Source: Chitinophagaceae bacterium UBA2793 (GTDB taxonomy: Bacteria > Bacteroidota > Bacteroidia > Chitinophagales > Chitinophagaceae). From it: DNA of 59,169 bases. Shown here in pieces: positions 3,862-59,169 of the stretch. The DNA is taken from positions 5,265-64,433 of the forward strand of contig DEHT01000016.1 of assembly GCA_002352045.1 (NCBI GenBank). Direction: 5' to 3'. Position numbers and translations under genes: made by a program. Under the pieces are notes generated by a model. That model made no database searches. It was not told the origin of the DNA and was given only the letters and a program-made list of their open reading frames with translations. How positions within the stretch are numbered: position 1 is the first letter of the stretch; each line of letters starts with the position of its first letter.

Positions 3862-4137
3862 TGTAAAAATATTGATAAAGTTATTCACATTTATTGGAAG
3901 CCAAGTGTATCTTTTACATATTATATACTGTATTAAATATCAATAATTTATATAATTTTGCCATAATTTGTTAGATTATTTTCTAATAGCCTTGTAGTAC
4001 ATGCACTACAAATATTTCGAAAAAAGTTTGGTTTATATTATTAGCCCTATTATCTTTACAGCGGTTTTTCATAGGATATTGGATTTTAAAGCGGGACTAG
4101 ATTTCTATCTTGGTCCCTTTTTTATTTTTATACATAT

Positions 4138-6111
4138 CTATCTGGTTCTCTGCATGCTACTTTTTGCACTTTTTATTATTCCCGATGCGGAATATTGCAA
4201 TTTATCCTCGGCCAACAAAAAATTTATCACCTCCCAGCATTGTTCCTCGGAAACGGGATGTAGTTTTCTTATTAATTCATTGGCATTTAGCTCCTCTTTT
4301 GATACCAACAATGCAATTTGTTTTTCAATAGCCGTAAAATCGCCTGACGCCAGCATTTTATAATGTTTATTGATACAGTTGTCGCAAACTGCACAATCTT
4401 TAATTTCAGGAGAAGCAAAATAATTGCCCAAAAATGCTTCTCTGCAATCTGTTGTATTTACATAAGAAGTCAAAGCAGTTATTCTTTTATTGTATTGATT
4501 TCGTCTTTCCTTTACCGTAGTAGTATCCATTTTAAAATCGTCGGAATACATTCTGTTTTTTTGGAGGTACACCTGTGGTTTACCTGATGGCTGATGATAC
4601 CGTATAATTCCATAGCGATGTAGCTCTTCGAGGGAATATACCAGCGATTCTCTTTCCATTTTTATTAAACCTGCAAGGCGCTGTTCGTAAATAGTAACCG
4701 GAAAATCGAAAATTCCTTCATAGCTGCGTAGCAAAGCCTTCACAACAGGCTCCAATGAAGGATACATTAGTTCAAACTCCAATAAATTTTTTTTGTTAGT
4801 AGTAAATACAACAGTTGAGTAGCTAAAAACTGTTTCGTTGTATGTGAGAATATCTTCCTTTGCCAATGCCTGGATTCCAAAACTAACTTTTAAAATATCT
4901 AATTTAAAATAAGATGCAAATAAAGTAATATCAAAGTCAAAGCTCAAACCTTCGCCTGTGCCTGCAGCCACTTGTAAGTGATTCATTAAGGCAGTATAAA
5001 TTTTTTTTATTTCTTCGGGCATAGGATACCGTATATCTGCCTGCTGTACCAAAGCAGTAATTTCTTCATTTTGATATAGCAAAATAGCATAAGCTTTTTT
5101 TCCATCTCTGCCTGCACGTCCGGCTTCCTGGTAATAATTTTCCAGGCAGTCGGGAAGGTTATAATGGATTACGGTACGAACATCGGGTTTATCTATACCC
5201 ATACCAAAAGCATTGGTACATACCATAACCCTCGTACTATTAATTAGCCAATCATTTTGACGCTGTGTTCTTTCTTCGTTGGATAATCCTGCATGATAAA
5301 AGGATGCATTAATACCATATTGCTGCAGCAAACCAGCTACCTGTTGCGTAAGTTTTCTGCTACGACAATATATAATGGATGTGCCGGGTACATTATCCAA
5401 CACTTGTTTTACTTTAACCTCTTTTGATTCGGGAGAGAAAACACTATACGACAAATTTGGCCTGGCAAATGCCTGGCTAAACTTTACTGCATTATCCGGA
5501 AACAATAATTTATCGCATATATCTTTTTGCACTTCGGGTGTAGCCGACGCCGTTAGTGCTATCACCGGCACACCCGGCAGTTCAGTTCGTAAATTGGCAA
5601 TTCTTAAATAGGGTGGTCTAAAATCGTACCCCCATTGAGAAATACAATGTGCCTCATCTACGGCAATGAGACAGGGCTTTATTGCCGGCAAATATTCCAG
5701 GAAAAGAGCTGTTTCCAATCGTTCGGGAGAAACATATAGAAATTTGAAATTACCATAAGCCGCATTCTGAAGTGTTTTTTTAACTTCAAAAAATGGCATC
5801 CCACTGTAAATAGCAAGGGCAGGAATTCCTCGTTTGTTTAAATTTTCTACCTGGTCTTTTATTAAAGCTATTAGCGGGCTTACCACTAAGCAAATACCCT
5901 CCATGGCCAACACCGGTACCTGAAAGCAAATGGATTTACCTCCACCTGTTGGTAGCAATGCCAGCACATCTTTTTTTCCCAATACAGTTTCAATTATTTC
6001 CTTCTGTACTGGTCGAAAGGAGGTGTAGCCCCAATATTTCTTTAATATTTCGCCTGGTTCACGGAGCATTTCATTCAATAATAAATGGTTCTTTACAATG
6101 TTTTTTTTCAA
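4138..6111 (-). CDS. RecQ-family ATP-dependent DNA helicase
   Basis: Motifs seen: LLPTGGGKS, DEAHCISQWGYDFRP, a QEAGRAGRDG arginine finger, and the Zn motif CAVCDNC. The track start at 6111 is TTG; an in-frame ATG at 6069 is an alternative. Confidence 0.9.
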   Translation of the reverse strand: MKKNIVKNHLLLNEMLREPGEILKKYWGYTSFRPVQKEIIETVLGKKDVLALLPTGGGKSICFQVPVLAMEGICLVVSPLIALIKDQVENLNKRGIPALAIYSGMPFFEVKKTLQNAAYGNFKFLYVSPERLETALFLEYLPAIKPCLIAVDEAHCISQWGYDFRPPYLRIANLRTELPGVPVIALTASATPEVQKDICDKLLFPDNAVKFSQAFARPNLSYSVFSPESKEVKVKQVLDNVPGTSIIYCRSRKLTQQVAGLLQQYGINASFYHAGLSNEERTQRQNDWLINSTRVMVCTNAFGMGIDKPDVRTVIHYNLPDCLENYYQEAGRAGRDGKKAYAILLYQNEEITALVQQADIRYPMPEEIKKIYTALMNHLQVAAGTGEGLSFDFDITLFASYFKLDILKVSFGIQALAKEDILTYNETVFSYSTVVFTTNKKNLLEFELMYPSLEPVVKALLRSYEGIFDFPVTIYEQRLAGLIKMERESLVYSLEELHRYGIIRYHQPSGKPQVYLQKNRMYSDDFKMDTTTVKERRNQYNKRITALTSYVNTTDCREAFLGNYFASPEIKDCAVCDNCINKHYKMLASGDFTAIEKQIALLVSKEELNANELIRKLHPVSEEQCWEVINFLLAEDKLQYSASGIIKSAKSSMQRTR

Positions 6112-45262: not shown

Positions 45263-46333
45263 ATGTTTAAACAACAAGAAGGAGATTTTTTTACCTCAAT
45301 CTTAATGAACTGGCATTTAAATGTCAATAAAAGAAAAATGCCCTGGAAAGGCGAAAAAGATCCTTACAAGATTTGGCTGAGCGAAATAATATTGCAACAA
45401 ACCAGGGTTGAACAAGGCTGGGAATATTATGAAAGGTTTATTAAAAAATATCCCAACATTCAAAAATTGGCAAAAGCAAAACAGGATGATGTCTTTAAAT
45501 TATGGGAAGGGCTAGGCTATTATAGCCGTTGCAAAAACCTGCATCATACTGCCCAACATATATCATTTGAATTAAACGGATATTTCCCCACTACTTATGA
45601 TACTATTCTAAATCTAAAAGGTGTAGGCCCGTATACAGCTTCGGCCATTGCATCCTTTGCCTTTAACCTTCCTTATGCCGTGGTTGATGGAAATGTAACT
45701 CGTGTGCTCGCTCGATTTTTTGGCATCAATAAAGCAGTTGATACTACAGAGGGCAAAAAGCATTTTTCGCAGCTAGCACAACATTTATTGCACAAAACAA
45801 AACCCGCACTTTACAACCAGGCAATAATGGATTTTGGTGCAACTGTTTGTAAACCGCAATTACCCTTGTGTGCTATCTGTCCTTTTCAAAGCCACTGTTT
45901 TGCGTTTAAAAAGAATAATGTGACTAATCTTCCGGTAAAAGAAAAAAGTATAATAAAAAAAAATCGTTGGTTTTATTTTTTAGTAATTACAACCGGCAAA
46001 CATGTTTTTATTAAGAAAAGAGAAAACAAAGATATATGGCAGCATCTCTACGAGTTTGTGCTACTGGAAAGGTCACATAAAACCAATACAGTTTCATTAT
46101 TAACTGATCCAGATTTTAAAACATTGCTCCATGCCCAGCCAAAACCATTGGCTGTTTCAACAGAATATAAACAATTACTCACGCATCAAACAATACATGC
46201 TTACTTTTTAAAATTTCAAATAAACAATAAAAAGGATTTGCAAGGTTTTGAAAAATTTTCAATAGACAAATTAAAAACCATCGCTTTCCCTAAACTCATA
46301 AACAACTATTTAAAAGACATTGGTTGGAAATAG
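45263..46333 (+). CDS. mutY: A/G-specific adenine DNA glycosylase
   Basis: HhH-GPD motifs (ILQQTRV, GLGYYSR, GVGPYTA), a 4Fe-4S cluster loop (C..x6..C..C..x5..C) and a C-terminal NUDIX-like domain. Confidence 0.9.
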   Translation: MFKQQEGDFFTSILMNWHLNVNKRKMPWKGEKDPYKIWLSEIILQQTRVEQGWEYYERFIKKYPNIQKLAKAKQDDVFKLWEGLGYYSRCKNLHHTAQHISFELNGYFPTTYDTILNLKGVGPYTASAIASFAFNLPYAVVDGNVTRVLARFFGINKAVDTTEGKKHFSQLAQHLLHKTKPALYNQAIMDFGATVCKPQLPLCAICPFQSHCFAFKKNNVTNLPVKEKSIIKKNRWFYFLVITTGKHVFIKKRENKDIWQHLYEFVLLERSHKTNTVSLLTDPDFKTLLHAQPKPLAVSTEYKQLLTHQTIHAYFLKFQINNKKDLQGFEKFSIDKLKTIAFPKLINNYLKDIGWK

Positions 46334-46428
46334 CCGTTTAAATGAAGCACATTTCAGCTAAAATTGTATCTTTAAATTCCTTAGAACAGCCAAAAGAATC
46401 AATAAGCAAACAGTAAATCAAAAAAACT

Positions 46429-46872
46429 ATGAGAGGGGTAAACAGGGTAATGCTCATCGGAAATTTAGGAAAAGATCCCGATATTCAGTTTTTAGAAGGA
46501 AATATCGGCGTTGCTAAATTTTCGTTGGCTACTACAGAAACCTATAAAGACAGGAGCGGTAAACTAATTTCACAAACAGAATGGCATACGGTAGTACTTT
46601 GGCGTGGGCTGGCAGAGCTGGCTCAAAAATACCTTCACCGTGGGAGCCTGGTTTATATAGAAGGAAGGTTAAAAACACGTAGCTGGGAAGACAAAGACGG
46701 CAATAAAAAATTTGCCACCGAAATAGTGGGAGACAATCTCATTATGCTGGATAAACGTAATGAAGGAGGTTCTTCTCTACCCGGCTTCGATAACTTTGAT
46801 GGCCCTTCGGGAGGGGAAACGGATATACCACCGGCTGCAGACGATGCTGGTCCGGAAAGATTACCATTTTAA
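46429..46872 (+). CDS. ssb: Single-stranded DNA-binding protein
   Basis: OB-fold N-terminus MRGVNRVMLIGNLGKDPD, a Gly/Pro-rich linker and a C-terminal ...LPF tip. Confidence 0.9.
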   Translation: MRGVNRVMLIGNLGKDPDIQFLEGNIGVAKFSLATTETYKDRSGKLISQTEWHTVVLWRGLAELAQKYLHRGSLVYIEGRLKTRSWEDKDGNKKFATEIVGDNLIMLDKRNEGGSSLPGFDNFDGPSGGETDIPPAADDAGPERLPF

Positions 46873-46963
46873 TTCAATATTTAAATCGGCAGCCTTTTAA
46901 AATTGCCGGCATTCGTTACTAAAAAAATATATTTTGGACTACCACTCGGTATTGGAAGCTAAA

Positions 46964-48277
46964 ATGCTTTTTACTTTTTTAAACATTCTGAACCCTGCAA
47001 CCACAGGCATAATGCTTTTTTTGGCTGTGCTGCTTTTTGTATTATCTTTTTTTATTGCAGGCTGCGAAGTGGCTTTTTTTTCATTAACTACAAAAGATAT
47101 TAACCTGCTTAAAACAAAGCAGCAACCTTCTTTTCGCCGTATAGTTAGGCTTTTGGAAGAACCAAAAACCTTGCAGGCAACTATGCTTATTGCCAATGTT
47201 TTTGTAAATATTGGAGCTATACTCGTTTGTAATTTTTTACTTAACCAATTGCTCGAAAAACAAAATTTTTCTCCTGCATGGTTAATGTTACTTAAAATAG
47301 GCATCATCACTTTACTTATAGTTTTATTTGCCGAAGTGCTGCCAAAGGTTTGGGCGGCACATCATAAAGTTTGGTTTGCCTCCTCTTCATCATTAATTCT
47401 TGAAATATTCAATAGCATCTTTTATAGAGTAAGCAGGAGAATTGTAAACTTTACAGATAAAATTGAAAAAAGAATTGGCGATAAAGCCGACTCGATGCAT
47501 GATAACAACCTCGATTATGTAATTGATCTTTTGCCTGAGCATGAAGCAAGCAATGAAGAAAAACAAATTTTAAAAGGAATTAGAAAATTTGGCGATACAG
47601 AAGTAAAGCAAATAATGCGTACACGAATGGATGTTAATGGAATTGAATACAACTGTAATTTTAAAGATGTAATTTCCAAAATTGAAGCACTGCATTACTC
47701 CCGATTACCGGTTTACAAAAACAACCTCGATGAAATTGTAGGAATGTTGCATACAAAAGATTTATTGCTGCATCTAAATGAAAACAACCAATTTGAATGG
47801 CAACCACTAATAAGGCCGGCATATTTTGTTCACGAACAAAAACTTATTGAAGACCTGATGCAGGATTTTAGAACTAAGCGCATTCACTTTGCGGTAGTAG
47901 TTGATGAGTTTGGCGGCACCAGCGGCATAGTTACCCTGGAAGACATTATGGAAGAAATAATTGGCGATATAAGAGACGAGTTTGATGACGAAGAAAGTAT
48001 AAATAAAAAGTTAGACGACTTCAATTATATTTTTGAAGGCCGCTTTAGTATAAATGATGCATGCAAAGCAATGGGCTTACCTATTGATACTTTTGACAGT
48101 GTGCGGGGCGATAGCGATTCGGTTGCCGGCCTGGTACTGGAAATTGCCGGCGAGTTTCCTCAAATAAACACCGTATTAGTGAGCGGCGACTTTAGCTTTG
48201 TACCCCTTGAAATAAATAAAAATAGAATTGATAAGGTTAAAATAATTATTCAACAAAAAGCCGACTCCAACGCTTAG
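46964..48277 (+). CDS. gldE: Gliding-motility-associated GldE (CNNM/DUF21 TM domain + CBS pair + CorC_HlyC domain)
   Basis: The domain order is read from the sequence. The ssb-gldE-gldD neighbourhood is typical of Bacteroidota. I chose the ATG at 46964; the track start at 46934 is TTG. Confidence 0.75.
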   Translation: MLFTFLNILNPATTGIMLFLAVLLFVLSFFIAGCEVAFFSLTTKDINLLKTKQQPSFRRIVRLLEEPKTLQATMLIANVFVNIGAILVCNFLLNQLLEKQNFSPAWLMLLKIGIITLLIVLFAEVLPKVWAAHHKVWFASSSSLILEIFNSIFYRVSRRIVNFTDKIEKRIGDKADSMHDNNLDYVIDLLPEHEASNEEKQILKGIRKFGDTEVKQIMRTRMDVNGIEYNCNFKDVISKIEALHYSRLPVYKNNLDEIVGMLHTKDLLLHLNENNQFEWQPLIRPAYFVHEQKLIEDLMQDFRTKRIHFAVVVDEFGGTSGIVTLEDIMEEIIGDIRDEFDDEESINKKLDDFNYIFEGRFSINDACKAMGLPIDTFDSVRGDSDSVAGLVLEIAGEFPQINTVLVSGDFSFVPLEINKNRIDKVKIIIQQKADSNA

Positions 48278-48279
48278 TA

Positions 48280-48927
48280 ATGAACTTTATAAAATGCTTA
48301 AAATGTGTTGCTGCATTACTAATTGCAACTTCCTGCAACAGCACTTATACATCTAAAAAGAAAGGATATTTTAAAATAGATTTCCCCGAACGCAAATATG
48401 TATTGCTGGATGAACCATCGCTGCCATACAGCTTTGAATACCCTGCGTATGCAAAAATTGTAACCGACAGCACTTATTTTGATAGCAACCCCGAAAATCC
48501 TTTTTGGCGCAATATTGATTTCCCGCAATTTAATGCCAGAATATTTTTAAGCTATAAAGCCATTGGCGGAAAAGCTTTGTATAAAGTAAAAGAAGCAGAT
48601 GGCTCTTATAAAGATTCTTTAGGTATTAATTATTTTGATGCGATGGTAAACGATGCCTTTAACCTAACCAATAAAAACGAATCCGTAGCCAGCTCTATTA
48701 AAGACAGTGTTTTTAAAAACCCAAATGGTATTACCGGCGTGTATTTTAAAGTAGGCGGTAATGCTGCTACGGCCAAGCAGTTTTTTTTAAGCGATACTAC
48801 AAAAAATTTTATACGTGGTGCTCTTTACTTTAATACTTCCCCAAATGCCGACTCATTGCAGCCGGTGCAGGATTTTTTACAGGCAGATATCATTCATTTG
48901 ATTAATACATTTAAGTGGAAAAATTAA
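48280..48927 (+). CDS. gldD: Gliding-motility lipoprotein GldD (assigned by position and size)
   Basis: Lipoprotein signal LLIATSC. It starts 2 nt after the gldE stop and is ~200 aa. Confidence 0.6.
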   Translation: MNFIKCLKCVAALLIATSCNSTYTSKKKGYFKIDFPERKYVLLDEPSLPYSFEYPAYAKIVTDSTYFDSNPENPFWRNIDFPQFNARIFLSYKAIGGKALYKVKEADGSYKDSLGINYFDAMVNDAFNLTNKNESVASSIKDSVFKNPNGITGVYFKVGGNAATAKQFFLSDTTKNFIRGALYFNTSPNADSLQPVQDFLQADIIHLINTFKWKN

Positions 48928-48944
48928 TAATTGAGAAATGTTTT

Positions 48945-48980
48945 GATTTGGAAATGAGTTGATTTGGAAATTTGGAAATG
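48945..48980. repeat. Left arm of an inverted repeat array (ATTTGGAAAT x2, 16-bp spacing, plus a third overlapping partial copy)
   Basis: ATTTGGAAAT occurs at 48946-48955 and 48962-48971, with TTTGGAAAT at 48971-48979. Confidence 0.85.
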
Positions 48981-49022
48981 TATATAGAATATCAACAAAA
49001 GAGAACTAATATTTAATAGTCA

Positions 49023-49089
49023 ATTTCCAAATTGCTGAATTTCCAAATTGCCAAATCTTCAAATTACCAAATTGCTGAATTGCCAAATT
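49023..49089. repeat. Right arm: the complementary 10-mers run on into eight tandem 8-bp units
   Basis: ATTTCCAAAT occurs at 49023-49032 and 49039-49048. Eight tandem octamers span 49026-49089: tccaaatt gctgaatt tccaaatt gccaaatc ttcaaatt accaaatt gctgaatt gccaaatt. Confidence 0.85.
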
Positions 49090-49096
49090 TTAAAAT

Positions 49097-49104
49097 TAAT
49101 TTTG
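49097..49104 (+). promoter_or_regulatory. Candidate -7 promoter box (TAnnTTTG) directly after the repeat array
   Basis: TAATTTTG lies 4 nt upstream of the ATG at 49109. Motif match only, and it would imply a leaderless or near-leaderless transcript. Confidence 0.25.
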
Positions 49105-49108
49105 CAGC

Positions 49109-49708
49109 ATGATAGCCATTGACAATGTTTTAGTGAGCGACGAACTGGTAGAAGAAAAATTTGTATGCGACCTTACCGCATGCAAAGGTGCCTGCTGTGT
49201 AGATGGCGATGCTGGTGCTCCATTGGATAATAAAGAATTAAAAAACATTGATGCCGTTTTCAACAAAGTGCTTCCTTACCTCGATGATGAAAGCAAAGCA
49301 GAGCTAGAAAAACAAGGCCGATATGTGTATGATAAAGAGTTTGGCTGGGTAACACCCACTATAAACGGGGCTGTATGTGTTTATGCTATTAAAGAAAAAA
49401 GCGGATTAGTAAAATGTGGTATAGAGCAAGCTTATTTGGATGGAAAAGTAAAATGGAAAAAACCCATTAGCTGCCATTTGTTTCCGGTAATTGTAAAAAA
49501 AAGCAAAGATGGAATAACCGATTATGCCAACTATCGTCCAAGGGAAGACCATTGTAAAGCAGCCTGTACTCTTGGAAAAAAACTACAAGTTCCCGTATAT
49601 CAATTTTTAAAAGAGCCTTTAATACATAGGTTTGGCATTGATTTTTATGAAGCACTCGACGCAACGGCTCAATACATGAAAGAACAAAAGAAAGAAAACA
49701 AAGTATGA
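49109..49708 (+). CDS. Cys-rich hypothetical protein (DUF3109-like, from memory)
   Basis: 199 aa with cysteine clusters (CDLTACKGACCVDG, ...C..., ...CKAAC). Its stop overlaps the start of the next gene (ATGA). Confidence 0.55.
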   Translation: MIAIDNVLVSDELVEEKFVCDLTACKGACCVDGDAGAPLDNKELKNIDAVFNKVLPYLDDESKAELEKQGRYVYDKEFGWVTPTINGAVCVYAIKEKSGLVKCGIEQAYLDGKVKWKKPISCHLFPVIVKKSKDGITDYANYRPREDHCKAACTLGKKLQVPVYQFLKEPLIHRFGIDFYEALDATAQYMKEQKKENKV

Positions 49709-50517
49709 GAATCCTAATCAGCATTTCAGCCCTTGCAGGTTTATTATTTATAAATGCCTGTTCGGTAAACAAAGCCAAAATAAACGATCAGCTAAAAAAA
49801 TATTTCGATGCAAAAAATGTTGACGGCTGCTTTACTATGTTCAACAATAAAGATGGTTCGGTAATGGTGTACAATATGAAGATGGATACCATGCGTTTTA
49901 CACCTGCTTCATCATTTAAAATTGTAAATTCTTTAATTGCATTGGAAACAGGTATAGCGCCCAACGACAGCCTGGTGATTCCCTGGGATGGCATAAAAAG
50001 AAACAGGGCCGAATGGAATAAAAACATGAACATGCGGGAAGCATTTAAAACAAGCAATGTGCCTTACTACCAGGAAATTGCCCGCCGTATAGGTGCCGAT
50101 ACCATGAAACGCTGGATTGACAGCCTGGGCTATGGCAATCAAAACATCAGCGGTCAAATAGATTCTTTTTGGCTCAACAATAGTTTAAAAATATCTCCCG
50201 ATGAACAACTGGGTTTAATGAAGCGCCTGTATTTTGATCAGCTACCATTTCGCAAATCAACCATGGAAACGGTTCGAAATATGATGATACAGGAAGAAAA
50301 CACTTTATATAAACTTAGCTATAAAACAGGTTGGGGTTTTGATGAACAAAAGAACAATATTGGATGGGTTGTAGGCTACATTGAAGAAAATAGGCACGTT
50401 TATTTCTTTGTAACACTTATTAAATCTCCTGAACCAACTATTGATATGGCAAAAGTGAGAATGGATATCACTAAAGACATATTAAAAGAACTGGGCTTTT
50501 TTCTGGGGAAAATGTAA
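49705..50517 (+). CDS. Class D (OXA-type) beta-lactamase
   Basis: All class D landmarks are present in order: SSFK (S-x-x-K), SNV (S-x-V), YGN, the omega-loop FWL..SLKISPDEQ and KTG. It also has a lipoprotein/signal-like N-terminus (LLFINAC). Confidence 0.85.
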   Translation: MRILISISALAGLLFINACSVNKAKINDQLKKYFDAKNVDGCFTMFNNKDGSVMVYNMKMDTMRFTPASSFKIVNSLIALETGIAPNDSLVIPWDGIKRNRAEWNKNMNMREAFKTSNVPYYQEIARRIGADTMKRWIDSLGYGNQNISGQIDSFWLNNSLKISPDEQLGLMKRLYFDQLPFRKSTMETVRNMMIQEENTLYKLSYKTGWGFDEQKNNIGWVVGYIEENRHVYFFVTLIKSPEPTIDMAKVRMDITKDILKELGFFLGKM

Positions 50518-50572
50518 ACTATATTTTAACAGCAGCCCTGCCTTTAAGTATTTAACTTAGGGCAATTAAATT

Positions 50573-52207
50573 ATGCTTCAGTTTCAATACAATTTATTGT
50601 TGGCAGTATTAGCCCTGGTGCCTCTGGCAATTATTATGTACTTTTTTGCCCGCAGTAAAAAGAAAAAATCCATCAAGGCTATTGGCGATTCTCAATTGGT
50701 TGGTTATTTATTGAAGCAATACAATGCAAGAAGTTTTTTTCAAAAATTTTTATTGGTTACTGTTTCGCTCACCGCACTTATTTTGGCATTGGCAAATTTA
50801 CGCAGCCCCACCGGATCCGAAAAAGTAAATCGTGCAGGTATAGACGTTATGATTGCCATTGATGTAAGCAAAAGTATGCTTGCGCAGGATATCAGCCCTA
50901 CCCGACTTGACAGAGCCAAGCAAATGCTGGGACGACTGGTAGATAAATTAGGCAACGACCGTATAGGTATTGTAATTTTTGCCGGTAAAGCTTATTTGCA
51001 AATGCCCCTCACCGCCGATTTAGCTGCGGCCAAAATGTATCTCTCTTCTGCAAGTACACAATCGGTACCTACCCAGGGAACCGTTATTGGCGAAGCTTTA
51101 AAAATGTGCTTTGCATCTTTTGATAGTAAAGAAAAAAAATACAAAGCCGTAGTATTGGTAAGCGATGGCGAAGACCACGATGAAGAAGCCAATGATATAG
51201 CCGGCCAAATGTCATCAGAAGGAGTTGTAATTTACACGGTGGGTATTGGCTCCCCTGGAGGGTCACCCATTATAGATACCGAAACGGGTGAAATGAAAAA
51301 AGATGCTTTAGGTAATACCGTTATTTCAAAACTAAATGAAGATGGGTTGAAATCCATTGCTAAAAAAGGGAATGGAAAATATATGTTGTACAACAATACC
51401 GAATCGGTGGCAAATACTATATCTCATCAACTGGCAACAATGGATCAAAAAGTTGTGAAAGACGATTCCTTAACCAACTACCGAAGCTATTATCAATGGC
51501 TGTTGGCTCTTGCCCTGCTACTGTTGATTGCAGAATTATTTATCAGCGAAGTGAAAAACATCCGTGCTAAAAAACTTTTAAAACCTGCCATCAGTATTTT
51601 ATTAACAGTGCTTTCAATACCATGCTGGGCTCAATCGGATAAACAAGAAATAAAAAAGGGAAACGAGGCCTATGCAAAAAAAGAATACAAAACTGCCGCC
51701 ACAACTTATAATAAAGTAGCGCAGAAAAACCCCGAAAATGCAACTGCTCAATACAACCTGGGAAATGCATTGTACAAAGACAATAAAAAAACAGAAGCCA
51801 TTGCAGCTTATGATAAATCTATTAGTAAACTTAATAAACCTGTAGAAAAAAGTAACGCTTATTACAATAAGGCTGTGGTGCTGCACAATGAAAATAAATT
51901 GCCTGAATGTATAACCGCCTACAAAGAAGCCCTAAAGCTTGACCCCAACAATGAAGATGCCAGGCAAAACCTTCAAAAAGCTTTAAAGAAACAGAAAGAG
52001 CAACAACAAAAACAAAGAGACAAAAAAGAAGAACAAAAGCAGCAAAACAAAGAGCAACAACAAAAACCCAAACCCCAGCCAAGCAAACTAAATAAGCAGG
52101 AAGCAGAAGAGCGCTTAAAAGCACTCATGCAAAAAGAAAAAAACCTGCAGGACAAGCTGCATAAAGTAAACAGCAATTCGCCCAATAAGCCGGAGAAGGA
52201 TTGGTAG
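50573..52207 (+). CDS. Membrane-anchored VWA-domain protein fused to a TPR module with a Lys/Gln/Glu-rich tail (BatB-BatC-like fusion)
   Basis: Order along the protein: N-terminal TM helices, a VWA MIDAS motif (DVMIAIDVSKSM), a further TM helix, an internal signal-peptide-like stretch (LLTVLSIPCWAQ), TPR repeats, then a KQKEQQQKQRDKKEEQKQQ low-complexity tail. Confidence 0.75.
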   Translation: MLQFQYNLLLAVLALVPLAIIMYFFARSKKKKSIKAIGDSQLVGYLLKQYNARSFFQKFLLVTVSLTALILALANLRSPTGSEKVNRAGIDVMIAIDVSKSMLAQDISPTRLDRAKQMLGRLVDKLGNDRIGIVIFAGKAYLQMPLTADLAAAKMYLSSASTQSVPTQGTVIGEALKMCFASFDSKEKKYKAVVLVSDGEDHDEEANDIAGQMSSEGVVIYTVGIGSPGGSPIIDTETGEMKKDALGNTVISKLNEDGLKSIAKKGNGKYMLYNNTESVANTISHQLATMDQKVVKDDSLTNYRSYYQWLLALALLLLIAELFISEVKNIRAKKLLKPAISILLTVLSIPCWAQSDKQEIKKGNEAYAKKEYKTAATTYNKVAQKNPENATAQYNLGNALYKDNKKTEAIAAYDKSISKLNKPVEKSNAYYNKAVVLHNENKLPECITAYKEALKLDPNNEDARQNLQKALKKQKEQQQKQRDKKEEQKQQNKEQQQKPKPQPSKLNKQEAEERLKALMQKEKNLQDKLHKVNSNSPNKPEKDW

Positions 52208-52270
52208 GCCTTCCCTAAAATGCAGTAGCATAAATAAAATTGAACTCAATTTTTATTGTTCATTTCATTT

Positions 52271-52296
52271 TATCAAAATAAGTATCTATTTTGATA
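52271..52296. repeat. Perfect 10-bp inverted repeat in the AT-rich spacer upstream of the PLD gene
   Basis: TATCAAAATA-agtatc-TATTTTGATA. Confidence 0.6.
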
Positions 52297-52536
52297 CCGC
52301 TAATTTATTGCACTAAAAAACACTTTATCCTTTGCATTAATCCTAAGCATTTTTTTAAAAATAATAGCTTTATTCTTCTGCTATTGCTTTATCAAACACA
52401 GATGACTTAATGCTCGTTATTGTTTAAAAAATTGTCCCGATATCTTTCCAATAACCTTACGCTTTTACCTCTGAAATCTAAGGATACTTTTTTGTTTCTA
52501 CTGTACACATTATTCGTAAACCTAAAAATTATCACC

Positions 52537-54228
52537 ATGCGTAAAAGAGTAGTAAAAAATGGTGTTGCCGTAAACGCCATTGCAGGAACCTATGTAGTTT
52601 TTCTTGGGCTCAATATTGAGCCTGCTTTAAAAAAAGGATTTAGGGGTTTTGCCATTAAACGAGAAGATCATACCGAGGGCGAAGCCTATTGGCTTAGAGG
52701 GTTAAAAACTTTTGAAGCAGTAGTGCCTAATCCTTCACCTGGTGCCAGCTTTTCATCTTACGTTCATCCCATCCAAAGTTTTCAATGGGCCGATTATAGT
52801 GCGAAGCCGGCTCACCAATATACCTATACCATCCTTTGCATGTATGGCCAGGTAAATGATATAAAACCGAAGCGCCAGCTAACCGTAACTATTTCTACCG
52901 AAGTAGAAGTTATAGAAAATGGCCATTCGGTATTCTTTAACCGTGGTTCAGTAGCCACACAAGAATATGCCCGAAAGTTTCTAAATAAAAAACCAAAAGA
53001 TGCGGGGCCTGCTGCATACGCATGGCTATCAAGGGGTCTTTTAGAATCTATCATTCGCTTTATTGATAACACAAAAAAAGGTGATTCAATATTTGGTGCG
53101 GTGTATGAATTTCAATGGCCGGCGATTTATCTTGCACTTAAAAATGCTAAAAAAAGAGGTGTGAAAATTGATATTATTTATGATGGTATTGATAAGCCCG
53201 GCGGACCAAAAAAAAGAAACGAAAAAGGAATTGATGACGCCAATATAAAATCCATTACCGACCCCCGGAAAAATGGAAAATTAATGCACAATAAATTTTT
53301 GATTCACTCAAGAGGAGATAAAAATTTTTCGGTACTCACCGGCTCCACCAATCAAACCGAAAATGGAATTTACGGACACTCTAACCTGGTGCATATTGTA
53401 AATGATATCACTGTAGCAGATGCATATAAGGCATATTGGAAAATATTAAAAAAAGACCCCGAAGTAAAAGAGAGTTACAGGGAAGATAATATGCAGGCCT
53501 CACCCGTATTGGATACACTGCCCAAAGGAACTACTCCCATTTTTAGCCCAAGGGGAACAAAGCTTGATTCGCTCAACTGGTACGCTACGCTTGCTTCCGA
53601 AGCCAAGGGAGCATTGTTGATGACATTTGCTTTTGGTATGCATCAAAAATTTAAAGACGTCTATAATATGGACGACAATATTTTAAGAATGGCTTTAATG
53701 GAAAAAGCCTTTGCTCCCAGTTCAAAAGAAAAAGACACAAAGGATGTACAAAAAATAAGAAACCGAAAAAATGTAATAGTTGCTTTGGGCAATAGAATTG
53801 CAACCAATGCTTTTGACCGTTGGTTGAAAGAAATAGACCGAATAATTCCTCAGCTTCATGTTTATTGGATTCATACCAAATACATGATTGTAGATCCACT
53901 AAGTGCTAACCCCATCATTGTTTCGGGGAGTGCCAATTTTAGCAAAGCAAGTACCGATACCAACGATGAAAATATGCTGTTGGTTAAAGGCGATAAAAGG
54001 GTTGCCGATATTTACTTTGGCGAATACCTTCGACTTTTTGCACACTATAGTTTTAGAGAATCGGTAAAAAGGGCCCTTGATAAAAAAAAGATTGGAACTG
54101 CCGATGATTGGAAACCACAATTTCTCATAGCCGACGATTCGTGGATGGATGATTATTTTAATGAAAACAACGATAAAACTGCAAGATTTGCCCGAAGGGC
54201 TTATTTCTCAGGGCCAATGTCGGAATAG
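52537..54228 (+). CDS. Phospholipase D / nuclease superfamily protein with two HKD-type motifs and an unassigned N-terminal domain
   Basis: I chose the ATG at 52537 (MRKRVVKNG...); the track's TTG at 52420 adds an implausible 39 aa. Motif 1 is HNKFLIHS...TGSTN (His codon at 53287). Motif 2 is HTKYMIVD...SGSANF (His codon at 53872). The first ~150 aa are beta-rich and contain no motif I recognise. Confidence 0.85.
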   Translation: MRKRVVKNGVAVNAIAGTYVVFLGLNIEPALKKGFRGFAIKREDHTEGEAYWLRGLKTFEAVVPNPSPGASFSSYVHPIQSFQWADYSAKPAHQYTYTILCMYGQVNDIKPKRQLTVTISTEVEVIENGHSVFFNRGSVATQEYARKFLNKKPKDAGPAAYAWLSRGLLESIIRFIDNTKKGDSIFGAVYEFQWPAIYLALKNAKKRGVKIDIIYDGIDKPGGPKKRNEKGIDDANIKSITDPRKNGKLMHNKFLIHSRGDKNFSVLTGSTNQTENGIYGHSNLVHIVNDITVADAYKAYWKILKKDPEVKESYREDNMQASPVLDTLPKGTTPIFSPRGTKLDSLNWYATLASEAKGALLMTFAFGMHQKFKDVYNMDDNILRMALMEKAFAPSSKEKDTKDVQKIRNRKNVIVALGNRIATNAFDRWLKEIDRIIPQLHVYWIHTKYMIVDPLSANPIIVSGSANFSKASTDTNDENMLLVKGDKRVADIYFGEYLRLFAHYSFRESVKRALDKKKIGTADDWKPQFLIADDSWMDDYFNENNDKTARFARRAYFSGPMSE

Positions 54229-54249
54229 AATTTTCCGAACAAATAAGTA

Positions 54250-54289
54250 CAATGTTGAGTGGCTGTTAATAGTCAGCCATTCAACATTG
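54250..54289 (+). terminator. Strong hairpin immediately after the PLD gene
   Basis: CAATGTTGAGTGGCTG-ttaatagt-CAGCCATTCAACATTG is a 16-bp stem with one G.T pair. It starts 22 nt after the stop. Confidence 0.6.
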
Positions 54290-54346
54290 CGCATCTCAAT
54301 CTTTTATTACAGCCGTATTTTAATCTTTTAAAAAAACCTTTAGCAT

Positions 54347-54354
54347 TAACTTTG
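54347..54354 (+). promoter_or_regulatory. Candidate -7 promoter box (TAnnTTTG) for ispG
   Basis: TAACTTTG lies 24 nt upstream of the ATG at 54379. Confidence 0.35.
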
Positions 54355-54378
54355 CTTTCCAATTCATTTTTAAGATTT

Positions 54379-56355
54379 ATGCAATTTTATACGGCATCTC
54401 TAAGTCAATACAAAAGATTAAAAACCCGTGAGGTAAAAATAGGCAAGCTTTTATTGGGTGCTGGCAATCCTATTCGGGTACAAACCATGACCACCACCGA
54501 TACCATGGACACCGAAGCAACGGTGGCTCAAAGCATCCGTTGTATTGAAGCCGGTGCCGAAATGGTTCGCATTACAGCTCCATCAAAAAAAGAAGCAGAA
54601 AATTTACAGGCTATCAAAGACCTGTTGCAAAAAAAAGGTTATTCCACGCCGTTAGTTGCCGATATACATTTTACGCCCAATGCAGCAGAAATTGCAGCGA
54701 AAATAATTGAGAAGGTTAGGGTGAACCCGGGCAATTATGTTGACAAAAAAAAGTTTGAACAAATTGAATATACCGATGCAGCATATGCGGCCGAAATTGA
54801 AAGAATAAGGGAGCGCTTTACACCTTTGGTTAAAATTTGTAAAGAGCAAGGTACTGCCATGCGTATTGGCACCAATCATGGAAGCCTCAGCGACCGCATT
54901 ATGAGCCGATATGGCGATACTGCTATTGGCATGGTGGAAAGTGCTATGGAATTTTTACGCATTGCCCGCAGTGAAGATTATCACAATATTGTGCTAAGCA
55001 TGAAAAGCAGCAATCCCTTAGTGATGGTGCAAGCTTATCGTTTGCTTATACAACACATGATGGCTGAATTTGGAGAATGTTATCCTTTGCACTTAGGGGT
55101 TACCGAAGCCGGCGATGGCGAAGATGGAAGAATTAAATCGGCTATCGGCATTGGAACTTTATTGCAGGATGGAATTGGCGATACCATTCGGGTAAGCCTA
55201 ACCGAAGACCCTGAATTTGAAATTCCCGTTTGTATGGATTTGGTTAAAAGTTTGCCTGCCACTTCTTCCACGGTGGAAGAATCAGCGGAGATAAAACTGC
55301 CTTACTCTCCTTTTGAATATAAAAGAAGAACTACCAATGCCGTACTAAACATTGGCGGAAAATATGTGCCGGTAGTAGTTGCCGACTTTATGCAACATGG
55401 AGAAATTACTACAAATAATTTTGAAACCATTGGCTATAACTATAACGGAGCAACCGATAAATGGAATATTGCAGATGCGGCTGCCGACTTAATTTATACC
55501 GGAAAGAAAAGAATCAATTTCGAATTACCGGGTACCCTTTCGGTATTAATAGATTATAGTGAATGGCAATCGGTAAAGGACAATGAAAAATATTTTCCCT
55601 TATTTCAGGGTAATGAATATTTGAAAGCTTCGGAAAAATCTTCAAAGCTGAATTTTGTAGCAATAGATAGCAATACCAATAACGATGCAGTAATTGCTGC
55701 CATTAAAAACGATGCTACAGTTGTATTGTGTGTGTATTCATCTGCAAGCAACGCCATGCAATCGGTGCGTAGTTTTATTGCCAACCTGATGCAACAAAAC
55801 ATTTGTTGCCCGGTAATTATTGCCGTGGAAAGTATGCATACTTCTATTGATGAACAACTCATACATTTTAGTGTAAATGCTGGTGCTTTGTTTTTAGATG
55901 GTATGGGTGATGGTATTTGGCTTATGAACGACCCGTCAAAAATCATTAACAAAGAAGTAAGCGGCAGAACATATTTACCCACTAAAAACAATCATCAATT
56001 TTTAAACAACACTTCGTTTTCAATTTTACAGGCAGTACGCACCCGCATTTCTAAAACAGAATACATAAGTTGCCCAAGCTGTGGAAGAACCTTGTTTGAC
56101 CTACAGGAAACCACGGCTAAAATTCGCAATGTAACCAACCATTTAAAAGGGTTGAAAATTGCCATTATGGGTTGTATTGTAAACGGTCCCGGCGAAATGG
56201 CCGATGCCGACTTTGGTTATGTAGGCAGCGGCCCCGGAAAAATTACTTTGTACAAAGGCAAAGAAGTAGTGAAACGAAATATCAACAGCGAAATAGCCGT
56301 AGATGAATTAATTAATTTACTCAAAGAAAACGATGCTTGGGTGGAGCCGGGGTAA
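54379..56355 (+). CDS. ispG: Long-form 4-hydroxy-3-methylbut-2-enyl diphosphate synthase
   Basis: GNPIRVQTMTTTDT and the Fe-S ligand motifs CPSCGRT and GCIVNGPGE. It carries the ~270-aa insert domain typical of the Bacteroidota/Chlamydia/plant type. I chose the ATG at 54379; the track start at 54259 overlaps the upstream terminator. Confidence 0.9.
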   Translation: MQFYTASLSQYKRLKTREVKIGKLLLGAGNPIRVQTMTTTDTMDTEATVAQSIRCIEAGAEMVRITAPSKKEAENLQAIKDLLQKKGYSTPLVADIHFTPNAAEIAAKIIEKVRVNPGNYVDKKKFEQIEYTDAAYAAEIERIRERFTPLVKICKEQGTAMRIGTNHGSLSDRIMSRYGDTAIGMVESAMEFLRIARSEDYHNIVLSMKSSNPLVMVQAYRLLIQHMMAEFGECYPLHLGVTEAGDGEDGRIKSAIGIGTLLQDGIGDTIRVSLTEDPEFEIPVCMDLVKSLPATSSTVEESAEIKLPYSPFEYKRRTTNAVLNIGGKYVPVVVADFMQHGEITTNNFETIGYNYNGATDKWNIADAAADLIYTGKKRINFELPGTLSVLIDYSEWQSVKDNEKYFPLFQGNEYLKASEKSSKLNFVAIDSNTNNDAVIAAIKNDATVVLCVYSSASNAMQSVRSFIANLMQQNICCPVIIAVESMHTSIDEQLIHFSVNAGALFLDGMGDGIWLMNDPSKIINKEVSGRTYLPTKNNHQFLNNTSFSILQAVRTRISKTEYISCPSCGRTLFDLQETTAKIRNVTNHLKGLKIAIMGCIVNGPGEMADADFGYVGSGPGKITLYKGKEVVKRNINSEIAVDELINLLKENDAWVEPG

Positions 56356-56382
56356 TGCTGATTAGAATGTTTTTCATCCTTG
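56226..56382 (+). repeat. Direct repeat copy 1: the last 127 coding nt of ispG, the TAA stop and 27 nt beyond it
   Basis: Aligns without gaps to 58458-58614 at an offset of 2232 bp, with 149/157 identical. The first 67 nt are identical. Confidence 0.95.
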
Positions 56383-56574
56383 TAGTACTGTATTCTTAGC
56401 CTTAGTTGTTCTGCTTCAACTGTTTTCACAGGCAGCATAAAAATTATTAAATGAAGTTGGCAACATCTTCGTTTTCGAATGAAAGATGTGTTGTGGTATT
56501 GTGGCAAAATAATGGGATACCCCGATTCGAAAAAAATGTTTTTCTCCTAAGAGAATAAATTATTATTAATAGAA

Positions 56575-57261
56575 ATGAATTATCATATTGATGAAAAAAA
56601 AATTTGCAATTTGATGTTATCATTAGCATGGCTGATGATGTTTTCCTGTGAAAGTAAAAAAAAGGAAATCAATACATCCAACTCATTAGAATTTGATATT
56701 GACACATTCGTTCAGGATATTCCCAGGGAGAAAAATGGAGACTTTGATTTTGCCTACCGAACAAAAGATACAATCGAAAAAAGAGTTGGATTGATTGACC
56801 TTTCAAAAGGATACGATTCTGTTTTTATCCGTTTGTACTATTCCTACTCTTTGTCAGAAATTTCCCAAATGGTAGAAATATTCTATGATAAAAAAATTGA
56901 AAGCTGGCAGTCTAAAATTCACACCCTTTTATTTGAATATTCAACCAATGGAGACTCACTTATTAATGTGAAGGATAGTGTGGTTCAAGCTTCGCCAAAA
57001 TCGGGTTGGCAGGTAATGATGAAAAAATTGAATTCATTCGATATGATTGATTTGCCGGATTGTAGTATGCTTGAGAACTATGCTTTACCAATGGATGGCG
57101 ATGGGGTTATGGTACAAGTAGCAACAAATAAAAAGTACAGGATGTATTCTTACACAATGCCAGTGTTATATAAAAACTTAATTCCTGAAGCAAAAAAAAT
57201 GTATAAAATTCTTTATGTAATACAAGATGAACTTGGTTTCAAACAAATTGGAGAGATGTAG
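56575..57261 (+). CDS. Hypothetical lipoprotein (cargo gene 1)
   Basis: Lipobox-like LAWLMMFSC near the N-terminus. An alternative ATG lies at 56614. I recognised no family motif. Confidence 0.55.
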   Translation: MNYHIDEKKICNLMLSLAWLMMFSCESKKKEINTSNSLEFDIDTFVQDIPREKNGDFDFAYRTKDTIEKRVGLIDLSKGYDSVFIRLYYSYSLSEISQMVEIFYDKKIESWQSKIHTLLFEYSTNGDSLINVKDSVVQASPKSGWQVMMKKLNSFDMIDLPDCSMLENYALPMDGDGVMVQVATNKKYRMYSYTMPVLYKNLIPEAKKMYKILYVIQDELGFKQIGEM

Positions 57262-57396
57262 AATATGTTTGCAGCAACAGCCCCAATGCCTGTGTAAATT
57301 AAAATATGTATGTAAAAAGGCATGTTGCTTTTAGAATAAGGCAAAATTCTTATTTTTATTACAACATGTCTTTATTTAAAATTAGCTTATTTGATT

Positions 57397-58422
57397 ATGA
57401 TTCCAAAAGAAAAAACTTTACGAATTGCAGCCGCAATATTTCTAAATATTTTATTTGGCTATTCTGCAAAATCTCAAAACCCATACTTCGAATTAACCAA
57501 TTTGGCCGAGTTGCAATTTATTGATGGAAATTATCGGGAATCTTTGAAAAGTTATAACAAGGCATTTGCTTTAGGGAAAAACAGTTTTGGAAAAGATTTA
57601 TATAATGCAGCACTCTGTTCTATAAGAATAGGAGACTTACTTTTATGTAACAATTTTTTAGACAGCCTTTGTGCCAGAGGTTACAAGTTGAATAAGCTAA
57701 ACAAAAAGCATTTTAGCAAATTCCATAAATCAAAATACTATAAAGCTTTGTCAAAAAAATATCAAAACTTTCTCATCAATGAAGTGTTAATCAAAAACAA
57801 TGAATACCTGCAAGGCATATTAAAAGATGACCAATATTTTCGTTTAAAAAACCCGGGGAATTATAGGAATACTGAATTTGTGGGCATAATAGGTTTAATA
57901 GATAGTATAAACGCATATAAGCTTTTAAACTTTATTGAAACAAAAGGATTTCCGAGTGAATTTACATGTGGAATAGATGAAACTTCCTCATTTTATAATT
58001 TCGCCAGCCATGTCATCCTTATGCATCAAGCTTTTGGCTCAAAATCAAGAGTAATAAATTTTACCGAAACCGTATTAAATGCAATGGAAAAGGGGCAGGT
58101 ATTACCTCATATTGGCACATCAGAATATGTAATATCGAGTAGAAGAGATTCTTTGTTTGGAAGGGATTACTATTTTAGAGTTAAACAGGATGATGGCACA
58201 TATATATATGCATACTTGGGCGACACAAAAAATGATAAAGAAAGTTGGATTAATACGAATAGAAAGAGATATAATTTAGAACCACTGGCAGACTATAGAA
58301 AAAAGATTTTGTATTGGATAAAAAATGACGATTTAATTTTTGACTTTATAATGGGTGAAGATGTGGCAACATTTAGTAAGAGTATGATAAAGCATTTTAA
58401 GAATATTAAATATATTGAATGA
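57397..58422 (+). CDS. Hypothetical secreted protein (cargo gene 2)
   Basis: I chose the ATG at 57397; the track start at 57391 is TTG. It has a signal peptide (AAAIFLNILFGYSAKSQ) and a TPR-like N-terminal helix pair. I recognised no catalytic motif. Confidence 0.55.
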   Translation: MIPKEKTLRIAAAIFLNILFGYSAKSQNPYFELTNLAELQFIDGNYRESLKSYNKAFALGKNSFGKDLYNAALCSIRIGDLLLCNNFLDSLCARGYKLNKLNKKHFSKFHKSKYYKALSKKYQNFLINEVLIKNNEYLQGILKDDQYFRLKNPGNYRNTEFVGIIGLIDSINAYKLLNFIETKGFPSEFTCGIDETSSFYNFASHVILMHQAFGSKSRVINFTETVLNAMEKGQVLPHIGTSEYVISSRRDSLFGRDYYFRVKQDDGTYIYAYLGDTKNDKESWINTNRKRYNLEPLADYRKKILYWIKNDDLIFDFIMGEDVATFSKSMIKHFKNIKYIE

Positions 58423-58457
58423 TTCTTACCGTTTCAGAATCTACTGATATAAGTACT

Positions 58458-58587
58458 CAGCGGCCCCGGAAAAATTACTTTGTACAAAGGCAAAGAAGTA
58501 GTGAAACGAAATATCAACAGCGAAGTTGCCGTAGATGAATTAATTAATTTACTCAAAGAAAACGATGCTTGGGTGGAGCCGGGTTAA
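58458..58587 (+). pseudogene. ispG: Headless 3' fragment of ispG (42 codons plus stop)
   Basis: It is in frame with ...SGPGKITLYKGKEVVKRNINSEVAVDELINLLKENDAWVEPG*. An in-frame TAA sits two codons upstream of the repeat boundary, and there is no start codon. Confidence 0.85.
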
Positions 58588-58614
58588 TGGTGCTTGGATA
58601 GTTTTTCATCCTTG
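58458..58614 (+). repeat. Direct repeat copy 2 of the ispG 3' end
   Basis: See copy 1. There are 8 mismatches: 3 in the former coding part (ATA/GTT and GGG/GGT) and 5 in the 27 nt after the stop. Confidence 0.95.
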
Positions 58615-58662
58615 CTGAATAAAACCAAAGTTGGAAATACTTGCCTTATTTTCACTAAAATC

Positions 58663-59169
58663 TTACATATTCCTCCTGTACTGCCCGCCTACACTATACA
58701 ATGCATGAGTAATTTGTCCCAAAGAACAATACTTTACCGTTTCCATTAGTTCTTCAAACAGGTTGCCGTTGTTAACTGCTACCTCTTGTAGTTGTTTAAG
58801 CATGGCGGCACTTTTATCGGCATGGCGATTATGGAATGCTTCTAAAGTTTTTATTTGAAATTCTTTTTCTTCGGTAGTGCTTCGTATTACTTCCTGTGGC
58901 AACACTGTTGGTGAACCTTGTTTGCTTAAAAAAGTATTTACACCTACAATGGGATATTCGCCTGTATGTTTCAACGTTTCGTAATACAAACTTTCTTCCT
59001 GAATTTTATTTCGTTGGTACATTCTTTCCATGGCACCCAATACACCGCCACGCTCTGTAATGCGATTAAATTCTGTGAGCACTGCCTGTTCTACTAAATC
59101 GGTTAATTCTTCTATTAAGAATGAACCCTGGTTGGGGTTTTCGTTTTTAGCCGTACCCAGTTCCCGGTT
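58663..59169 (-). CDS. 3' end of a methylmalonyl-CoA mutase-family gene ending in the catalytic TIM-barrel domain (IcmF-like; 5' end lies outside the window)
   Basis: The frame is open to the window edge. The sequence ...[39 protein letters not shown]...GVNTF...GQYRRNM* matches the end of the mutase substrate-binding domain, and no B12 domain follows it. Confidence 0.75.

Follow-up and report, generated by a model that had tools for sequence, protein, structure and literature searches.

A strain-variable insert at the 3' end of ispG in a Ferruginibacter-like bacterium, best explained as a patch of foreign chromosomal DNA

The ispG gene examined here lies in a 59,169-nt stretch of DNA from Chitinophagaceae bacterium UBA2793 (GenBank assembly GCA_002352045.1, contig DEHT01000016.1, positions 5,265 to 64,433), called the window below; its source is, judged from its ispG relatives, a Ferruginibacter-like member of the Chitinophagaceae. 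The 3' end of this gene is present twice, and the two copies enclose an insert that other strains of the same species do not have; alleles with the insert are called filled, those without it empty. The features of the locus, numbered from the first nucleotide of the window, are the following.

54379-56355, forward strand: intact ispG, 658 aa from the ATG of the public gene calls, with its last 127 coding nt inside repeat copy 1
55977-56348, forward strand: diverged tract of ispG linked to the insert, differing from each empty allele (L092, L093, L094, L105) at 15 of 372 nt (4%)
56226-56382, forward strand: repeat copy 1, the functional and apparently incoming ispG 3' end together with the TAA and 27 nt of tail
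56383-58457, forward strand: foreign interior, 2,075 bp, absent from the conspecific empty alleles
56575-57261, forward strand: orf228, lipoprotein-like; public calls use the ATG at 56614, giving 215 aa
57397-58422, forward strand: orf343/341 (orf343 below), with a signal peptide, a TPR region and an uncharacterised C-terminal domain
58419-58457, forward strand: 5' stub, 13 codons long, of a grasp-with-spasm ATP-grasp maturase gene, cut at the junction with copy 2
58458-58460, forward strand: microhomology CA(G), common to a maturase Gln codon and to ispG 56226-56228, as read from the sequence
58458-58614, forward strand: repeat copy 2, apparently the former ispG 3' end, displaced and non-functional, followed by a tail of its own
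58615-58662, no strand: 48-nt spacer between the ispG stub and the mutase stop, found in filled alleles only; empty alleles have 5 nt here
58663-59169, reverse strand: 3' end of an IcmF-like fused mutase gene, convergent with ispG and forming the right-hand homologous flank; 1,139 aa in L081 and L092

Comparison of the window with itself showed that 56226-56382 recurs at 58458-58614 over 157 bp, at an offset of 2232 and with 0 indels. Nucleotides 1-67 of the two copies are identical, and the 8 mismatches all fall in the remaining 90 nt: those in coding sequence are at 56293 and 56295, which change one codon (ATA/GTT, Ile/Val), and at 56352 (GGG/GGT, synonymous), while those after the stop are at 56358, 56361, 56364, 56367 and 56368. 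Both copies end ...GAGCC GGGKTAA and continue into the common 27-nt tail. Since this is the sole direct repeat longer than 37 nt across the 59-kb window, its length is far above chance. Copy 1 completes an ispG gene of 658 aa with a Pfam match to GcpE (E=1e-122), and the gene call of the same length in contig L082 carries both GcpE and GcpE_C. An in-frame TAA (58450-58452) lies ahead of copy 2, whose own TAA is separated by 75 nt from the mutase stop at 58663; a terminator-like hairpin with a T-run was called in the tail of copy 2 (58579-58597), and the corresponding tail of copy 1 was not called terminator-like. The interior has a GC content of 30.8%, against 37.4% for the window. The elements of the initial annotation, namely the duplication with its offset and mismatches, the intact gene completed by copy 1, the dead fragment in copy 2 and the AT-rich interior, were all reproduced.

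The arrangement of ispG, repeat and insert was found by exact-protein look-up in at least six assemblies, and the filled contigs comprise L081 (ENA, k127), L082, L084 and L083 (NCBI metagenome-assembled genomes), L085 (JGI) and L086/L108 (Logan); the Logan contig L086 occurs in 5 samples. Samples with the filled allele include SRR1068202 and SRR1051195 and the runs underlying GCA_035440965.1, GCA_035440485.1 and GCA_002455285.1. Both repeat copies are covered by L081, L082 and L084. L081 comes from a slightly different strain, with 11 single-nucleotide polymorphisms (SNPs) relative to the window, all in the 3' end of the mutase gene, and with an identical insert structure; the filled alleles match one another at 99.6% or more, with no variation in the insert. 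The variable codon of copy 1 is GTT in L082 and L084 and ATA in the window and L081; these are the sole two differences between L082/L084 and the window over 11.2 kb, and they match the state of copy 2. This polymorphism probably reflects gene conversion from the ispG stub or a mixed assembly consensus. Positions 528-605 of the JGI scaffold L085 are an N-gap lying exactly over copy 1, and in L083 the mutase gene (2394-4602) has been called as two pieces, of 177 and 574 aa. The two irregularities point to difficulty in assembling the region of the repeat and the polymorphic mutase end.

These irregularities bear on whether the whole structure could be an assembly artefact, namely a chimeric join or a collapsed repeat in a metagenome-assembled genome, an outcome that the initial annotation had said would undo its claim. 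The N-gap of L085, the contigs that begin or stop within the repeat and a possible consensus mix at the ATA/GTT codon would speak for it; breaks of the Logan contigs within the repeat, however, are what a real repeat exceeding the k-mer in length would cause. Both junctions and the whole structure recur across assemblers and samples (ENA k127, NCBI, JGI and Logan), and again in the strain of L081, despite its SNPs elsewhere, so that an artefact can be discounted with near certainty.

An exact look-up of the window's 658-aa ispG gave no match, and the informative conspecific contigs were obtained via the 90% ispG cluster. Empty alleles are represented by ispG variant P0012 on 13 contigs (eight of them L092-L099) and by a further variant on L105, from at least nine samples. 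On all empty contigs ispG, preceded by a PLD-family gene, is directly convergent with the IcmF-like mutase gene, and the insert is missing; this is the empty site that the initial annotation had proposed to look for in close relatives. The flanks are nearly the same in the two classes: the window has 0 mismatches with L093 over 46259-55447, and L081 has 10 mismatches with L092 in the 8 kb beyond the insert. Because empty contigs share near-identical flanks and lack the insert, the structure is a real insertion polymorphism within one species. The earlier reading of the locus as an insertion of foreign DNA was thus borne out, and a duplication shared by all relatives, which had been named as the contrary outcome, is not what was found. 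The 89% relative L100 has one small gene between ispG and the mutase gene. The 80 ispG loci of GTDB Chitinophagaceae were considered as empty sites and rejected as too distant: in these representatives ispG is at most 79% identical and no mutase gene lies downstream, the common downstream neighbours being nadB and an acyltransferase gene.

The filled and the empty alleles differ by more than the presence of the insert. Empty alleles end ...CCTGTTGAATAA followed by the 5-nt spacer (...GAGCC TGTTGAATAA TATTT, then the mutase stop), a terminus that agrees with the outgroup L100 at 15 of 17 nt; all ispG variants ending ...EPG are filled, and all those ending ...EPVE are empty. The sampled empty alleles (the 13 P0012 contigs and L105) lack ...CCGGGKTAA, the tail and the 48-nt spacer, and are therefore not the precise excision product (attB) of the filled allele. 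Such a precise-deletion allele, defined as ispG ...GAGCCGGGKTAA + tail + CTGAATAAAACC..., had no match in a pattern scan of JGI metagenome contigs, and neither had a 47-nt pattern from the core of the repeat; the known contig L085 was missed as well, so this collection, which appears not to contain the species, is uninformative for it. The diverged tract at 55977-56348 lies directly left of the insert, and the 9 kb upstream are identical; the right flank contains about 2 filled-specific SNPs in the first 400 nt of the mutase gene. Since the termini differ, the left tract is diverged and the right flank carries these few SNPs, the difference between filled and empty alleles reads as a recombination tract with homologous flanks and not as a site-specific event.

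Divergence from empty alleles extends further left; however, the whole of 55448-56348 was rejected as an imported tract, as L105 is window-like up to 55950 and yet empty. In 55448-55950 two ispG haplotypes about 7.6% apart are reshuffled among otherwise identical strains (L093 against L105), and the 3' end of the mutase gene is likewise a mosaic: between the window and L081 it has 7 SNPs within the 27 nt of 58759-58785. Local recombination around the ispG-mutase locus is frequent. In empty alleles (L092 10085-10110) the ispG stop has changed from TAA to GAA, lengthening the protein by one codon (...EPVE), and the convergent stops of ispG and the mutase gene are 5 nt apart in empty alleles.

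The mismatches between the two copies suggest which of them is the older. The GTT (Val) of copy 2 is the state of the empty alleles, the outgroup also has Val (GTA), and the ATA of copy 1 is a novelty; this supports copy 1 as the replacement gene end and copy 2 as the displaced old one. Five of the 8 mismatches fall in the 27 of 157 nt that follow the stop (p = 0.005 under a uniform model; p = 0.02 if selection acts on copy 1 only), and this clustering, together with the conservative nature of the coding changes, is consistent with two ispG ends that evolved apart in separate lineages, each as part of a functional gene. The same data bear on an in-situ replicative event, in which replication would have switched template to foreign DNA and returned 157 nt upstream, leaving a perfect duplication that diverged later. 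Such an event would account for microhomology at the return junction, and the copies share one derived base (A at 56277/58509) relative to the empty alleles and the outgroup; the two copies also seem to undergo gene conversion, as the ATA/GTT polymorphism indicates. However, the copies are 5% apart while filled alleles are at least 99.6% identical and the insert does not vary, the differences concentrate after the stop under either model, and two of the changes lie within one codon. Template switching is for these reasons considered improbable.

The right edge of the insert could be resolved to the base by comparison with homologous loci. Positions 58419-58457 agree with L090 11011-11049 at 26 of 39 nt, while past 58457 only 10 of 39 nt are identical; the encoded maturase start, MILTVSESTDISTQ, aligns with MIIILSSITDLSTQ, and the ATGA stop/start overlap with the preceding gene is conserved. 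The maturase belongs to family TIGR04192 (E=8.5e-76). At the junction L090 reads ...TTAAGTACTCAAAAAG, the window ...ATAAGTACTCAGCGGCC and ispG ...GTAGGCAGCGGCC. Because the maturase gene is truncated at codon 13 and joined to ispG through CA(G), the right end of the insert is an illegitimate join, with 2-3 nt of microhomology, at a point within a gene, and not the arm of an att site. The hexamer AGTACT has 7 occurrences in the window, two of them at the inner edges of the insert (56384-56389 and 58452-58457); these were considered as element ends and rejected, the right one being native Ser-Thr codons of the maturase.

The rest of the interior is occupied by two unrelated genes. Profile searches gave no family match for orf228, and its structure model (predicted local distance difference test, pLDDT, of 45) was too poor and was left unused. 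Its only homologues are about 64% identical, and one of them, in L104 (1002-1622), starts 70 nt after a gene for an Rhs-associated core protein (2-931) whose C-terminal tail has no assignment. The position right after an Rhs toxin is the classical place of an immunity gene; since the L104 homologue directly follows an Rhs-core toxin tail, orf228 is suggested to be a candidate orphan Rhs immunity gene. For orf343 the AlphaFold model (pLDDT 82) shows TPR repeats and a C-terminal domain; the latter had no match in the PDB, and the structure search returned generic TPR matches only. Homologues of orf343 (about 51% identity) sit within grasp-with-spasm clusters for ribosomally synthesised, post-translationally modified peptides (RiPPs), where the order is double-glycine precursor genes, the homologue, the TIGR04192 ATP-grasp maturase, and then a SPASM protein, a C39 ABC transporter and an HlyD-like protein. 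In L087 and L090 (10001-11014 in both) the homologue overlaps the maturase gene by an ATGA stop/start. The orf343 family thus appears to be a conserved component, as yet unannotated, of grasp-with-spasm RiPP clusters. At 100% identity, database look-ups returned both cargo genes from this ispG locus only. As the cargo consists of unrelated genes and a 5' gene stub, whose homologues occur in Rhs and RiPP contexts, it has the character of an arbitrary chunk of a donor chromosome.

The initial annotation had proposed that the two copies are attL/attR-like arms of an integrative element. Read in this way, the insert would be a decayed or trans-mobilised site-specific islet, comparable to e14 or phage 21 at icd or to a cis-mobilizable element (CIME), in which a surrogate ispG end restores the gene and which once carried, or borrows, a tyrosine or serine recombinase. 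The architecture is indeed like that of icd and icdC around e14 (PMC13626634), the leftmost 67 nt of the repeat are identical in the manner of a crossover core and contain the 12-bp palindrome CTTTGTACAAAG, and empty sites exist. However, 32 such palindromes occur in the window, and one within the repeat is therefore expected by chance; the right arm is coding up to the junction, where it ends as a truncated gene, and the empty alleles have a different ispG terminus, none of them representing a precise excision product.

The machinery that an islet would need was not found either. Within the 2,075-bp interior, which holds only orf228, orf343 and the 13-codon maturase stub, no integrase or recombinase was detected with Pfam, PHROG, NCBIfam or PADLOC, in line with the absence of integrase, transposase and tRNA reported initially, and the sampled flanks yielded none either. 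A phmmer search for tyrosine recombinases, with a XerD query and with no positive control, found none in the window and 105 loci, which is weak evidence. No tRNA is present in the window, and an Rfam search of 54000-59169 gave no match. In the 80 Chitinophagaceae loci no second ispG end was found within about 8 kb downstream of ispG, nor was any integrase found downstream by weak searches (the best 25 Pfam families and the XerD query). The insert had no BLAST match to phages and plasmids, and scans of IMG/VR with orf343 and with the ispG C-terminus gave no match. Searched by tblastn against phage records, the ispG C-terminus had distant matches of 35-45% identity, with 17 of 22 extending over 80% or more of the 100-aa query; a surrogate ispG end would match the last ~43 aa alone, no match was limited in this way, and no phage or plasmid was found to carry such an end. 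The search for other occurrences or other cargos, also proposed initially, yielded no second insertion site and no second cargo. A transposon or insertion sequence is not indicated, as there is no transposase open reading frame and no inverted repeat at the ends of the insert, and a 157-bp repeat with 5% divergence is not a short target-site duplication. An IMEX, that is a Xer-exploiting element with a dif-like 28-bp site duplicated at its ends, is unlikely because the repeat lies within coding sequence. Considering also the extra assumptions it requires, a site-specific islet is regarded as unlikely, though somewhat less so than template switching, and the attL/attR interpretation was not upheld.

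A mechanism has to accommodate the insertion polymorphism, the truncated-gene junction with its microhomology and the diverged left tract, with no recombinase detected. The best explanation is that the insert is a strain-variable foreign chromosomal patch at the ispG end and not a discrete mobile element. It probably arose by homology-facilitated illegitimate recombination, or by single crossover of a circularised fragment, anchored in ispG and followed by homologous exchange between strains. For the donor and the exact order of events we infer the following. A fragment from a relative would have carried the 3' part of ispG, its tail, orf228, orf343 and the start of the maturase gene. At its left end it would have entered by RecA-type homologous recombination inside ispG; at its right end it would have been joined illegitimately, through 2-3 nt of microhomology, to the recipient ispG 127 nt before the stop. 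This join would lie 157 nt upstream of the end of donor-recipient homology, and because of that the last 157 nt would have been duplicated, the recipient's copy being kept as a dead stub while the donor copy now completes ispG. A single crossover by a circularised fragment with a truncated ispG end would be an alternative route to the same product. Three features by which illegitimate recombination is recognised were found: a microhomology junction, donor-type polymorphisms on the homologous side and arbitrary trapped DNA. The filled allele would now spread between strains solely by homologous recombination in ispG and the mutase gene. The insertion route that the initial annotation had thought might be undescribed need not be invoked, as known homology-anchored illegitimate recombination can account for everything seen.

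Several observations weigh against this account. The identity of nucleotides 1-67 of the repeat would also suit the core of a recombinase site, and of the two AGTACT hexamers only the right one is explained. The recombinase searches lacked a positive control, and for the downstream genes of the relatives only the top 25 Pfam families were listed. No contig with ispG, orf228, orf343 and the maturase gene contiguous, as expected of the donor, was found in look-ups of databases that are incomplete. In addition, no sampled empty allele matches the ispG stub with its tail and the 48-nt spacer, the differences being 3 mismatches in 123 nt and another terminus; either the sample does not include the recipient background, or homologous recombination brought in the whole block at a later time.

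A further possibility was considered, in which the 157-bp ispG end would serve as a portable homology arm: recombination of the two copies by RecA would free a 2.2-kb circle, containing the cargo and one ispG end, which could re-insert by single crossover into any naive ispG of related strains. The junction diagnostic of such a circle, or of a tandem, was defined as ...GATATAAGTACT + copy + TAGTACTGTATTC.... If this were true, the insert would amount to a self-targeting cassette, free of any recombinase, by which orphan immunity-type genes are spread beside an essential gene; the proposal is, however, very doubtful, more so than either the islet or template switching.

The proposed event has counterparts among experimental and natural systems. 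In Escherichia coli, single crossovers by truncated circular molecules produced duplications of 109-950 bp of the homologous segment (PMC3240628), and homology-facilitated illegitimate recombination was suggested as the source of orphaned 3' regions in arrays of Rhs and type VI secretion system (T6SS) genes (PMC5361080, where de Vries & Wackernagel 2002, Prudhomme et al. 2002 and Meier & Wackernagel 2003 are cited for illegitimate recombination). The ispG locus shares with these two processes one homologous anchor and one illegitimate end with microhomology, the trapping of arbitrary foreign DNA with no recombinase, target-site duplication or inverted repeats, and the partial duplication of the homologous segment, which in the experiments was 109-950 bp. 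Unlike the experimental cases of homology-facilitated illegitimate recombination, it is a natural footprint in an uncultured Ferruginibacter, and its block has since been reshuffled by homologous recombination. As in the displacement arrays of Rhs, contact-dependent inhibition (CDI) and T6SS genes (PMC5361080), an incoming module gives the anchor gene a new 3' end, the old end is orphaned downstream and the cargo is immunity-like; in contrast to those arrays, the anchor is a housekeeping gene of the methylerythritol phosphate (MEP) pathway, there is a single layer, and no effector gene is present.

Resemblance to site-specific elements is more partial. CIMEs derive from, and depend on, an integrative and conjugative element (ICE) of the same att specificity, whereas no ICE or att use at ispG was found. 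The locus has in common with CIMEs and recombinase-less islets (ICEberg 2.0, PMC6323972) a small cargo, direct repeats, a position at a gene 3' end and the lack of a recombination module. With e14 and phage 21 at icd (PMC13626634, and Hill et al. 1989 as cited there) it shares incoming DNA that supplies the gene 3' end, a C-terminal pseudogene fragment at the far end (icdC in that case) and conservative differences between the copies; e14, however, encodes an integrase and excises precisely, while at ispG no recombinase was found, a gene is cut off at the junction and none of the empty sites seen is precise.

The ispG insert offers a clean natural example of gene gain without mobile-element machinery, in which the junction is known at base resolution and empty and filled alleles are both seen in one species. 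It also indicates that an att-like direct repeat at a gene 3' end is not sufficient for calling an integrative element, and that the inner junctions must be read. The insert's cargo includes a candidate Rhs immunity gene and a gene of RiPP clusters, in keeping with the idea that such rare events may fix orphan protection genes. Current understanding is left unchanged, as this is a tidy example of a known though rarely documented route rather than an element of a new kind.

On the other side of ispG, a PLD-family nuclease-like gene (52420-54228; PF13091, with weak DrmC-type PADLOC matches) lies between a BatB-like VWA/TPR gene and ispG. The gene occurs in the window and in every conspecific contig, and is absent from this position in relatives with 73-89% identical ispG (L002, L003, L007, L100, L102); it looks like an older, fixed insertion. 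Further upstream, 49022-49096 is taken up by AATTKCCAAATT-like units repeated in tandem with a period of 8 nt, in the intergenic space between a GldD-like lipoprotein gene and the next gene.

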